Assembly (NCBI GenBank): GCA_951406725.2
Contig: OX597818.1
Location: 101,494,001 to 101,558,000 of the forward strand
Origin: Octopus vulgaris
Taxonomy: Eukaryota
DNA length: 64,000 nucleotides
Direction: 5' to 3'
The position numbers and the translations under genes are program-made. Numbering within the stretch: the stretch's first letter is position 1; every line of letters begins with the position of its first letter. The notes beneath the pieces are model-generated. The model had not been told where the DNA came from. It saw nothing but the letters and a program-made list of their open reading frames with translations, and made no database searches. This document shows positions 1,024 through 31,544 of the stretch, piece after piece.

Positions 1024-1095
1024 CTCATGAAGAAGACTTCCCAAGCGTGTTCCCTGCTCTTAAAGTTTACGAAATGATCGTTTCCACCCGGAAGC
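1024..1095 (-). CDS. Predicted 72-nt symmetric phase-2 exon (LPGGNDHFVNFKSREHAWEVFFMR)
   Basis: Minus strand: acceptor ttatatcacag|, donor AG|gtaggt. Only the phase-2 frame is open, and it joins in frame to the 102-nt exons. Confidence 0.6.
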
Positions 1096-3809
1096 CTGTG
1101 ATATAATTAGTATGAGTAGAAATTACGTTAGCTTCGTAGAATGATTAGATATTGTATATATTACCAATTTGATGTCAAGAAAAATAAAATAATAATAAAT
1201 CTCAGAGCGAGTTATAAACAGTAGCTACAACACATTGTGACGTACATCTGTCATTTAAATATGGCTAACACCTAAGATTGGATGCTAATGTAGTGTGTAG
1301 CCCCAGGAGGACACCTCCTACAGCTGGCCATAGAGACAAGTTATGTGCCCTATCAGTGTTTGCAAAGGGAAGCCATCCTTCCTGTCTTAAACTTATGATA
1401 CACACGGACTCGTGTGGATTTTGTAACCCATAATCCAAGTTCCGACATTTTAGGAGTAATCATGTTCAATATATCTATACAACTATCAATATAAAATGTC
1501 CAACTTCATATTCAGAGTTATTTTACTTTATCTACGCTTGTGAATATTGAAATTTTTTTTAAATCACAAATATCTTCCCGCATATTGATATCTTGAAGTT
1601 ATTTCGTTACCATGATTTTTCGCCAAAACACGCTGACCGTATTTTAAATGGTTTGAAAATGATGTAAAATATAGAAAAAAAGAATAGGAATAGTGCATAT
1701 AACCTACATTAACAGGTAATTTTCATGGAAGGATAAATCTGTAGCACTTTCAAAATGGAGTGGGTATCAAAAAAGTAAAAACGTTATTTGGAGGCTTTTT
1801 ATCAAAAAAGGCATTTCAAATGAAAGAGCTCGGAAAAAATTCATATTGTTTTTATATCCTTTTAATGGTTTCGGCAATAGGGCTGAGGCCATGCTGGAGC
1901 ACCAGCCTAATTTTCTATCAGTATTTAACGCCTTATGCTTGGAGGTTATGATTGAGCTGAACATCTCTCAGTGTATCCATGGACGATGGGCTGCTCCGGT
2001 AATGTCGTTACGCCTTTATTCAATACGTGCTTTTTTTTTTTAAAGATTTCCATTAGGGATTCGTTCTATATTTACATTTCTGATCTGTAGGTTTTGCCTA
2101 CTTTGAAAACTCGAGGAAGGTATAAATGCTAACATTGAAAGTGATTTATTTGAATTACAGAAATAGTTTGAGACAACTGAATAAAGTCTATTTCACACCG
2201 AAATATTTCTTCAGATTTAATTTTTTTAAATATATCGGATTTCTATGACTCCGCAAAACATTGTGCGCAAATATTAATTTTTTTCTGTTCCCCAAATTTT
2301 ATTTAACGATTATTATATCAATAACCTGTAGAACTCATTCTACGTGTTTACAGCAAAATGTTGCCCTATATCCTATATGTGAGGTAAGGCCTTATCTGAA
2401 GACTGTAAGCTTTGATGTCTCTCTAAACACTAAACTTTACCCATGATCCATAACCTACTCTTAAATCCTAACGCTAATCGATTATTTATTTGTGGGTTGA
2501 TTAGCTATCTGCTACGTTTCAATTATATACTTTTGGAAAAAGCAGGAATATCAATAAGTACCACAAGGTCCGTACTTTGAGACGAATTAAACAAAAATTA
2601 CATTTCCCTACTACCAGTCGTGCAATTTTTTTTACCATACTTACTTTCATTGCCCCTTCTTTCCTCCGTCCGGCATATCTGTTCTGATTCTCTTCACTCC
2701 AAATATTACGGTCTTTCCACTCCCTCTCGCCGCCTTATGTTGCTTCTCGCCCTTCGTCTAGATCTCCATTCCACGCTTGCCCGCTTTCATGCTGCTTTTC
2801 CTTAATGATTCGTTTTTCTCTTCCTCAAATTGCTTAAAAATTTAAATCAGTCGCTCTACTATGTGAGCTGGTTTTGCTATTTATTTTCTCTTCAAGACGG
2901 ATATCGTTCTCATGGCAATATATCTTTGCAACTATTGAGTAGGATCATATGCATGACGTTTTGCACATTCCGTCTGATAATTGGGAATATAACGATAGAT
3001 AAATAATATTAAGTTTCTAAGAAATAGCTATTTATTAAAAACATAATGCGTCCTCAACTTCATATTTTAAACTAATATATATATATATATATATATATAT
3101 ATATATATATATATATATATATATATATATATATACATATATATATATATACATAAATAAAAAACTATTTCAATTTGAAAAATACAGAATACGTCATAAT
3201 ATGCACATATACCCAACTTTTATCTTTTTGCATATTTCACTTCACGATTACATCACTGTACATAAATCCCTTCACTAAACAAGGTTTTCGAAAATTGTCT
3301 TTGTCTGTACACATATATATTCTCCGCATTACCGAAAGCTGAACAGTTATCACTCTTACCAACAAAAATAACAATAATAGCGATAACGAATTACATCCCT
3401 GTATTCATCTACTTTTGAATTTCATCACACACAACATGAACAAAATTTCTTCTTAAGAAAAAATACATATTCAAATAAGTAAAATATATGTTCATGAATA
3501 GCGATAGCGAATCCGGTCGATAGATTAAAAATTTTCCTTATTTAATTTCTTATATATATATATATATGCATGTATATACAAATATATATGTATATGTATA
3601 TATATATATATATATATATATATATATATATATATATATATATATATATATATATATATATATATATATATATATATATACATATATATATATATACATA
3701 CATACGTACATATATACCATATATATGCATACATACGTACATATATAAGTATATGTATATATATATATATCTAATTATGCATATATATACACACACATAT
3801 ATATATATA

Positions 3810-4322
3810 TATATCTATATTGTATAGAGGGCATTAATACACATAAATGCCTCACACTAAGAGGGACAAAGTCATTACTGCCAAAATTACACTAATCATA
3901 CCTAAATGCAGTTCTTCAAAGCAAGACATTTAAAAAATGAATTTAGTTCTGTTCGTCTTCGCTAGGTAAGGTTGGTGGCTTATTTATGATGTGTTCAGAA
4001 TCAGTTTTGCTGAGGATCATAAGACGTAAGTTAAATGTGAAATCACGGTGATACAGAACTAAATTCATTTTTAAATGTCTTGCTTTGAAGAACTGCATTT
4101 AGGTATGAGTAGTGTAATTTTGGTAGTAATGACTTTGTCCCTCTTAGTGTGAGGCATTTATGTGTATTAATGCCCTCTATACAATATAGATATAATTAAT
4201 TTGTTCAAAAGAAAAAAAATTATTTCGAATTCTTTTCTTTTATGAGGTTTTCACGCTAACTACCTGAAAATTTCTTGTAAAGATTCCTTATTAAGAAGTT
4301 ATCCTTAATTGTTAATTTTAAT
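3810..4322 (+). mobile_element. Penelope-like terminal-repeat fragment with inverted duplication, in (TA)n
   Basis: ~140-bp inverted arms (3810-3952 and 4053-4194) with a hammerhead motif in the spacer; flanked by TA repeats. Confidence 0.7.
4003..4060 (+). ncRNA. Type I hammerhead ribozyme
   Basis: Stem I agttttg/cagaact, core CTGAGGA (4010-4016), stem II tcat/atgt, GAAA (4039-4042), near-palindromic stem III tcac-g-gtga, cleavage triplet ATA ending at 4053. Confidence 0.7.
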
Positions 4323-5171
4323 TATATATATATATATATATATATATATATATATATATATATATATATATATACATACATACGTACATATATACCATAT
4401 ATATGCATATATACGTACATATATATGTATATGTATATATATATATCTAATTATGCATATATATACACACACATATATATATATATATATATATATATAT
4501 ATATATATATATATATATGTATGTATGTATGTGCATGTGGGTGTGTGTGTACGAGGGCTAATTATTGAGTATCTGGAATGTTGCCATGGTTACAAACTGA
4601 AACGCGAAAAGTGAAGTCACTTGGCCAAACTCTGCCTGCGAATAAATTTCTTATATTCTTACCATTTTCCGCGTTGTGCAGCAGTGCTTCCATGGCAGGT
4701 GTGTAACATGCGATCGTCGCCTTGCTAATGACAGAGTATCTGCATCATATTTAGGCAAAAGCTTGGCGATATGTGCAAAAAAGTTTCATAGTTATCGATA
4801 GATTAAAGCAGATAATGTGATGATAATGATCTGAACTCAACCGTATATAATCTGGATAACTCGCGTATTGTAATTTTGTGATTTCTCCTCAAAGCTGTAC
4901 GAATGGCTGCGATGTTTTTATCAGTACGGTTGGTTGCGGTTCTTCGAAAACGTTCCACATCATCGACATTTTACGGCCATCTTGGAAACAATCACACATT
5001 ACATCCAAGTATTGCAGTAAACAGCGGAGGTAAGCTAGAACGTAAACCTTAGTGCGGATGCACAGCAGTATTCAGGGACAATATGTACCTATCGGCTTTA
5101 TTCTACGTTCTTTTGCTTCATTACTTTTGCATCATTCCGGATACAAATTCATCAGCCATTATATATATGCC

Positions 5172-30682: not shown

Positions 30683-30733
30683 AGCTTCCTGAAGATTTCT
30701 CTTGAATGAAACAGTTCTAGTCCTGTAGAAGCT
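30683..30733 (+). ncRNA. Type I hammerhead ribozyme
   Basis: Perfect stem I agcttc/gaagct, CTGAAGA, stem II ttc/gaa closed by U.U, GAAA, stem III cag/ctg, GUA triplet at 30725-30727. Confidence 0.8.
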
Positions 30734-31500
30734 CCTTCTATATAATAAATTAATTTTACTCTGCTATGTATTGAGTACCTTATTTACTGTGGTTAACCCC
30801 GAATCAACCCGGGACCTACATATATATATATATATATATATATATATATATATACAAGTAGAGTTACACGGCGTTGCCCGTGTTACATGCAATTGAAGAA
30901 TTGGACTTTTTGTCGTATATTTTCTGTAGTTAACTGGAATACTTTTGTTTCGAATTTCATTGCAGATGGAGGTTATTTCCCTCTTTACACGCCCGAAAAA
31001 AGATTGTAAAATATCAAGTGTATTTATTTCTGCATAAGTTCTACTCAAAATATACGAATTTTCTTCGAAAAGGCAATAAAATTAGTAGTCGTTATATATG
31101 TACCATAAAAGGACGAATTATACATTTGTGCTAACCAGACTTTGATTAATAAGAAAGCATGTAACACAAATGTTAACTTCGTATAATTAGAAATTACGCA
31201 ATAGATTTGAAATATTTACGGTAGAAGGTTTTGAAGTCTTCAAATTTTGCAATATAATTCTAACATACTTATCTAAAACTATATTTATCTTGGCTTTATT
31301 TATTCACTCATGAGATTCAGGATGTACAAAACAATTACTACAGGAAATTTCAGATCTCCTGAGTTAATATTTTCTCGACATGTGTAGATATATAAAACAA
31401 TAATCTCCGTAATAATATTTATATCGAATGCATTAAAACATTTTATATCAAATGGGAACATTTTATATCAAATATAAAAAAAATATCATAGTTTACTTAC

Positions 31501-31544
31501 ATAAGAGAAACGGAGAGAATGAGCACGAACATTATATTTCGCAT
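31501..31544 (-). CDS. Predicted start / signal-peptide exon (MRNIMFVLILSVSL-I)
   Basis: ATG at 31544 and strong donor AT|gtaagt in phase 2. Joined to the 21550 exon it reads MRNIMFVLILSVSLINA-LNSTT. Confidence 0.62.

Follow-up and report, generated by a model that had tools for sequence, protein, structure and literature searches.

How is an exon that has been copied six times within one gene used by that gene: are the copies joined in one transcript, or is one of them chosen per mRNA? This question is raised by a 64,000-nucleotide (nt) stretch of Octopus vulgaris DNA (contig OX597818.1, positions 101,494,001 to 101,558,000; here referred to as the window, in whose positions all coordinates are given). 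On its minus strand lies the gene with the repeat exon array, paralog B. An earlier note on this DNA had described a signal-peptide exon, six 102-nt phase-2 copies with AG/GT ends and a 72-nt exon, all of which we found (Table 1), and had proposed either a mucin-like stalk with a length set by copy number or a cassette of mutually exclusive exons. We consider it likely that the six copies of paralog B are spliced serially behind a predicted signal peptide, and that the protein, likely at the cell surface or secreted, would bear a predicted N-glycosylated arm at its N-terminus whose length depends on copy number and likely skipping.

The splicing evidence derives from sequencing-run contigs. 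Words of copy 4 are contained in 13 of the 24 listed runs, none recorded as RNA; the contig evidence covers four of the 24 runs (X1, X4 and X8, which are RNA-like, and X9, which is DNA) and one 931-nt stretch (12770-13700). In the RNA-like runs, nine of the 11 contigs lie inside 13041-13144 and end at splice sites, the remaining two sit on a high-copy transposon fragment, and no other intron is covered; DNA run X9 covers 29 of the 30 bins of the same stretch. A joint that steps back exactly 102 nt is present in one contig of run X1 and one contig of run X8, and is absent from the joints listed for run X9 in this stretch. Record 9 of run X8 contains two whole copies, i.e., a copy-1-like copy (seven differences from copy 4) followed by an exact copy 4; the junction in run X1 is compatible with either copy 3 or copy 2 preceding copy 4; and in run X4, a 16-letter loose end reads as the 3' end of a repeat copy. 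By eye, loose ends match the 3' end of exon 1 at 29/30 nt (run X8) and 27/30 nt (run X4), while the downstream loose end of run X8, which is a consensus of two records, resembles the 72-nt exon at 25/30 nt. Altogether, the join of exon 1 to a copy is present in two of the three RNA-like runs, and the copy-to-copy joint is present in two, with the loose end in the third. The copy-to-copy joints show that the repeat copies are spliced in series and not mutually exclusively, and serial splicing in turn means that the region is longer or shorter depending on how many repeats there are, as one of the two earlier proposals held. The predicted order, with exon 1 spliced to a 102-nt copy and a 72-nt-type exon following, is also borne out by the RNA-like contigs and by RefSeq models. 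We conclude that the paralog B array is real and expressed, the RNA status of the runs being guessed from their metadata.

All six copies have 102 nt, AG/GT ends, an open frame and phase 2 on both sides. Consistent with the earlier description, the first sequon (NST/NTT) is present in 6/6 copies and the second (NDT/NGT) in 5/6. Copies 2-6 differ from each other by only 1-4 amino acids, and across DNA and gene models, 11 copies were seen, each of which retains 33 residues and the first sequon. Ser and Thr account for 10-11 of 33 residues (~30-33%), Asp and Glu for 4-6 and Pro for one. Mucin Pro/Thr/Ser domains have more than ~40% Ser and Thr and more than ~5% Pro; the repeats are, therefore, not mucin in the strict sense. 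Exon 1 is predicted to encode a signal peptide (best nine-residue Kyte-Doolittle mean 3.2; the call is made from hydropathy only), and 13 of its 14 residues are identical to the start of Octopus sinensis XP_036355865.1. Because the repeats lie directly behind this peptide and N-terminal to the unique domain, they are a distal N-terminal arm and not the membrane-proximal stalk suggested previously.

The array consists of six exon-bearing units of 1.9-3.6 kb with start-to-start spacings of 3552, 2483, 2372, 1880 and 2491 nt, and the units differ among themselves through internal deletions and duplications. Informative sites switch partners along the units, which are, thus, mosaics: in the copy 5 unit, the upstream flank groups with copy 3, and the 3' half of the exon and the downstream flank group with copy 1. 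This pattern points to unequal crossing-over or gene conversion. The 2.37-kb blocks with copies 2 and 4 are 13 substitutions apart (0.55%), so that one of these copies could have been duplicated very recently or could be an allele left uncollapsed in the assembly, and the true copy number may be five. DNA depth reaches 5586 at 13474-13505, a place homologous to the left edge of the array. At this edge lies a decayed repeat (21850-22240), which we take to be mariner-like from its motif, and the duplicated units start inside it at ~22059. An older exon-less part-unit (5170-3346) is 77-80% like the array units.

The earlier note further held that the exon is kept while its flanks decay. The exon is indeed intact in units that carry indels and deletions; however, the contrast is not statistically supported. 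With the copies aligned with ~330 nt of flank on each side, variable sites amount to 15/102 in the exon vs 101/661 in the flanks (Fisher p = 1.0), the mean pairwise distance is 0.058 vs 0.052 and 0.075, and no exon indels were observed vs 1.7 expected (P = 0.19). Five of the 16 exon changes are synonymous (P = 0.33 vs neutral), and the ratio of nonsynonymous to synonymous differences (pN/pS) is 0.57 in pairwise comparisons. By variable sites, indels and synonymous share among the six copies, no extra constraint on the exon relative to its flanks is measurable, and the proposal that the exon is the more constrained part is not supported; this is one of the two outcomes that the earlier note itself had named as counting against its reading.

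We propose the following model. Recent unequal crossing-over, likely helped by the repeats at the unit edges and the (TA)n tracts, would add or remove whole units. With the exon symmetric and its splice sites kept, each unit would add 34 amino acids and up to two N-glycan sites; if all six copies entered one mRNA, the arm would have 204 amino acids and 11 sequons. Exon skipping would trim it and generate a ladder of lengths. The arm would likely shield the ~200-amino acid unique domain with its glycans or hold it at a distance, and the copies would be near-neutral additions that are tolerated, not variants selected one by one.

The window holds more of this gene family than had been recognized, in that the exons at 61336-39044 belong to a tandem paralog, paralog A, a point that the earlier note missed. 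The last of them (39177-39044) matched two Octopus proteins at 100% (models P0003 and P0004), one of which is O. vulgaris CAI9723279.1. CAI9723279.1 starts with a single repeat copy and a 72-nt-type exon and continues through the exons at 56098-39044; this is the chain of exons that P0004 links. Accordingly, what lies in the window is the 3' half of one gene, paralog A, and behind it the 5' half of the next, paralog B. In O. vulgaris, CAI9723277-279 have consecutive accessions and each is on a 147,548,901-nt contig, which suggests at least three tandem paralogs.

Of 1327 candidates in a profile search, seven proteins were returned; each of them comes from O. vulgaris or O. sinensis, and none is characterised. 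The profile was built from three close sequences and the search covered lengths of 69-350 amino acids, so that more distant homologs may exist. From these sequences, the family would so far be confined to two species of Octopus. A homolog search with the intron-extended open reading frame around copy 1 gave none in 25 candidates; this negative was misleading, as the family turned up in subsequent searches. P0006 (E 2e-4) was considered as a member and rejected as an unrelated repetitive protein. The O. sinensis members are LOC115231167 (XP_036355865-868), LOC115212221, LOC115231305 and LOC115231142; these and the O. vulgaris models CAI9723277-279 are all labelled "uncharacterized" or "hypothetical" and are partial, and no paper naming any of six family identifiers was found in the literature library searched. 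LOC115231167 is likely the ortholog of paralog B, already annotated with two to three repeat copies: isoform X1 has three, and each of isoforms X2-X4 has a different pair of them. At the protein level, the last copy of this gene is the same as copy 6, and its other two copies are not in the window. There is one repeat copy in P0004 and P0005, three in P0012 and six in the window. Copy variants in runs X9 and X4 that are not in the window (codons 11, 17, 21 and 25) match the amino acid states of O. sinensis copy b, arguing that array content differs between genomes. In the 72-nt exon, paralog B differs from O. sinensis at four of 24 residues, while paralog A is identical between the species. 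The first ten codons of this exon (1066-1095, minus strand) vary among B-type sequences (window, P0012 and the run X8 loose end) and are identical in both A-type proteins; the sites are too few to test.

In paralog A, the seven supported internal exons (15, 15, 39, 36, 27, 54 and 93 nt) are multiples of three and in phase 2. The internal exon that follows, of 50 nt, is the exception, as it leads into the last exon with a change of phase. A predicted transmembrane helix (best 19-residue hydropathy 2.08) and a three-residue basic tail are encoded by this last exon. Because of this symmetry, any subset of the phase-2 exons could be dropped in frame, and the database models contain differing subsets. 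Two further candidate symmetric phase-2 exons with AG/GT ends on the minus strand (228-205, 24 nt; 52480-52424, 57 nt) are in none of the 10 family proteins retrieved. A C-terminal hydrophobic helix is predicted in two family models (P0004/P0003 and P0010). The models that most likely represent paralog B (P0007, P0011-13 and P0008) are without it: P0008 has a best 19-residue mean of 0.59, P0007 and P0011-13 are truncated, and the O. sinensis models, on a 39-kb contig, run past the first 15-nt exon into its downstream intron and stop there. CAI9723278.1, which by accession order is probably the 3' half of B, splices out of the last exon ahead of the helix and ends in a different terminal exon, and 28 of the 29 residues encoded by its counterpart in the window (36121-36032) are identical to its C-terminus. 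Membrane and soluble forms may, from these sequences, both exist.

Table 1. Exons and repeat array of paralogs A and B in the window.
Feature	Position	Strand	Remarks
Paralog B exon 1, first coding exon, predicted signal peptide	31544-31501	-	44 nt, donor GTAAGT, phase 2
Tandem array, six exon-bearing units	22059-7290	-	85-98% alike, (TA)n tracts; left edge in high-copy repeat DNA
Repeat exon copy 1	21550-21449	-	Most divergent: 8-12 nt from other copies; one sequon
Repeat exon copy 2	17998-17897	-	1 nt from copy 4
Repeat exon copy 3	15515-15414	-	102 nt, AG/GT, phase 2
Repeat exon copy 4	13143-13042	-	0 differences in contigs of runs X1 and X8
Repeat exon copy 5	11263-11162	-	Mosaic unit
Repeat exon copy 6	8772-8671	-	33/33 amino acids identical to last copy of O. 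sinensis LOC115231167
72-nt phase-2 exon, start of unique domain	1095-1024	-	AG/GT; 20/24 amino acids identical to O. sinensis XP_036355865.1
Paralog A 15-nt phase-2 microexon	61336-61322	-	Peptide in P0005, P0009
Paralog A 15-nt phase-2 microexon	56098-56084	-	
Paralog A 39-nt phase-2 exon	55026-54988	-	In P0005 only
Paralog A 36-nt phase-2 exon	52095-52060	-	
Paralog A 27-nt phase-2 exon	50593-50567	-	
Paralog A 54-nt phase-2 exon	44993-44940	-	
Paralog A 93-nt phase-2 exon	44145-44053	-	In P0003, P0009; absent from P0004, P0008, P0010
Paralog A 50-nt exon, phase 2 to phase 1	42232-42183	-	
Paralog A last coding exon	39177-39044	-	Short Thr/Pro linker, predicted transmembrane helix, RRK-stop; AATAAA at 38961
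Candidate alternative terminal exon, no transmembrane helix	36121-36032	-	From internal donor after 39110

Several points weigh against the serial, length-setting array that we propose. The RNA status of runs X1, X4 and X8 is a guess from metadata; no contig or read with more than two copies was seen, although assembly could collapse repeats; and no contig joining copy 6 to the 72-nt exon was shown. The skipping isoforms of LOC115231167 are gene models and not full-length cDNAs, the 3' half of paralog B lies outside the window, and the glycosylation, localisation and function of the protein are predictions from sequence. Moreover, the joint neutral chance that frame, absence of stops and all splice dinucleotides were kept is ~0.06, which speaks against near-neutral copies; given this value, the exon copies may be under weak purifying selection. 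A mutually exclusive cassette, the earlier note's second alternative, would place one copy in each mRNA and provide sequence variation in a Dscam-like manner. Single-copy contigs do exist (run X4 record 3, depth 168; run X8 record 10, depth 51). However, they carry the codon-15 states Phe and Met, which are those of the single-copy paralog-A proteins P0005 and P0004 and occur in none of the six window copies, and because of this match they most likely represent paralog A rather than skipping in B. The copy-to-copy joints in runs X1 and X8 contradict a one-copy choice, every LOC115231167 isoform has two or three copies, and copies 2-6 are only 1-4 amino acids apart. We therefore consider this cassette largely refuted and very improbable.

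Two other explanations concern the significance of the array rather than its splicing. Paralog B might be a decaying or relaxed duplicate in which intron-level duplication was neutral and copies are spliced only while their splice sites are undecayed; we regard this as rather unlikely as a full account, and it is partly compatible with serial splicing. It would explain that the exon has diverged as much as its flanks, that the sets of copies turn over between the window and O. sinensis, that B-like models are truncated or without a transmembrane helix, and that it is the 72-nt exon of B, and not that of A, that has changed between the species. On the other hand, 33 residues and the first sequon are kept in 11 of 11 copies, the last copy is protein-identical between the species, and spliced contigs of the B type are present in two runs, X1 and X8, with run X4 showing a loose end from one copy to another. 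Alternatively, and in our view less probable still, the protein could be a polymorphic recognition molecule (self/non-self, gamete or immune) under diversifying selection, varying by repeat number, skipping and fast change at the start of the unique domain. The all-phase-2 design, the models differing in exon content and the 72-nt exon start that differs among the window, P0012 and run X8 would fit; however, the repeats have no dN/dS excess, and the X8 consensus mixes two records. In the ESM Atlas, the features of P0005 gave a weak galectin-like match (0.88; 10/10 top matches from one family or clan), which is below the reliability bar of 0.9 and was not repeated elsewhere: P0009 had no usable match in the ESM Atlas, Pfam had no family over the cut-off for any family protein, and PDB sequence searches gave nothing below E 0.3. 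The AlphaFold models (predicted local distance difference test scores 33.0 and 37.6) were unusable, and a Foldseek search with them, with no matches at E 0.001, was uninformative. Taken together, serial splicing of a copy-number-dependent arm remains the reading that we favor.

The DNA of the window is AT-rich and of animal character, and it contains microsatellites and remnants of transposons. Record 9 of run X8 is 1653 nt long and has 1334 letters upstream of its first copy, of which the coding sequence of exon 1 accounts for 44; the extra letters may be a long spliced 5' untranslated region (UTR), read-through from paralog A or a chimera. A strong donor-like site at 32261 (minus strand), ~700 nt upstream of exon 1, could belong to a 5' UTR exon. 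Intron 1 contains an inverted repeat (28982-29274 / 30451-30750; ~300 nt, 96%) around an AC/TA-rich tract, and a 664-nt direct tandem duplication (99%) lies at 27768-28967. In the intron after copy 6, an open frame of 497 codons (5046-6539, plus strand; RVT_1 E 0.0015 and GIY-YIG E 0.016, both under the cut-off) is likely a Penelope-type retroelement that interrupts the part-unit at 5170-3346. The introns of paralog A have long reverse-transcriptase-like frames at 47802-49826 and 57620-59458 (both plus strand), which by eye are of the long interspersed nuclear element (LINE) type, and 36664-38230 and 59167-60600 are related retroelement ends.

The design described here, with repeated exon units, a variable glycosylated arm and in-frame skipping, is already known, and RefSeq already includes the multi-copy ortholog, as a model without characterisation; the family itself is uncharacterised, and public gene models show it in fragments. 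Should diversity of alleles and splice forms turn out to be high and tissue-restricted, these proteins would be candidate cephalopod recognition molecules; if not, the locus would be a clear example of a young exon array with near-neutral turnover.

Among known systems, mutually exclusive clusters of the Dscam type consist of tandemly duplicated exons of equal length and phase, and in the micro-exon genes (MEGs) of schistosomes, the cut-off for a micro-exon is 36 nt. Unlike in Dscam-type clusters, a single octopus transcript can hold more than one copy, and the copies hardly differ. O. sinensis LOC115231167 is of the same family, but has three copies rather than six, and only the last is identical. 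In the MEGs, which include antigen 10-3/MEG-4, as much as 75% of the coding sequence can consist of micro-exons (PMC4015677). The likeness lies in the signal peptide, the symmetric exons, the skipping variants (here from gene models), the few membrane-anchored members and the lineage restriction; in contrast, exons of at most 36 nt account for 93 of the 329 nt of internal paralog-A exons in the window, and for less of the whole gene, and the octopus is free-living. The closest design is that of the Schistosoma mansoni polymorphic mucins (SmPoMuc), which have a 27-bp exon 2 in ~1-kb units, with up to ~20 copies and introns >93% identical (PMC2576457). Both systems have an exon with its flanking introns in tandem just after exon 1, microsatellites between the units, and a clustered multigene family with short exons, repeat numbers differing by gene, recombination between repeats and alternative splicing (PMC2576457). 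The octopus system differs in its 102-nt exon, units of 1.9-3.6 kb, 85-98% identity, N-sequons and the transmembrane helix predicted in family members. Thus, the octopus gene shares the tandem exon-repeat design (a repeat unit in tandem after the first exon, serial splicing, shown for two copies, and a number that differs between genes); no sequence homology to SmPoMuc was found, the seven homologs from the profile of three close sequences being all Octopus. The family belongs to neither SmPoMuc nor the MEGs, and the likeness is one of gene design, with no homology claimed. As a speculation to which we give little weight, these Octopus-specific surface and secreted glycoproteins, encoded in tandem and almost entirely by symmetric phase-2 exons, possibly with a degenerate galectin-like domain, might generate individual- or cell-specific variants through copy number, skipping and a membrane/soluble switch of the last exon for polymorphic recognition, as a free-living mollusc counterpart of SmPoMuc and the MEGs.

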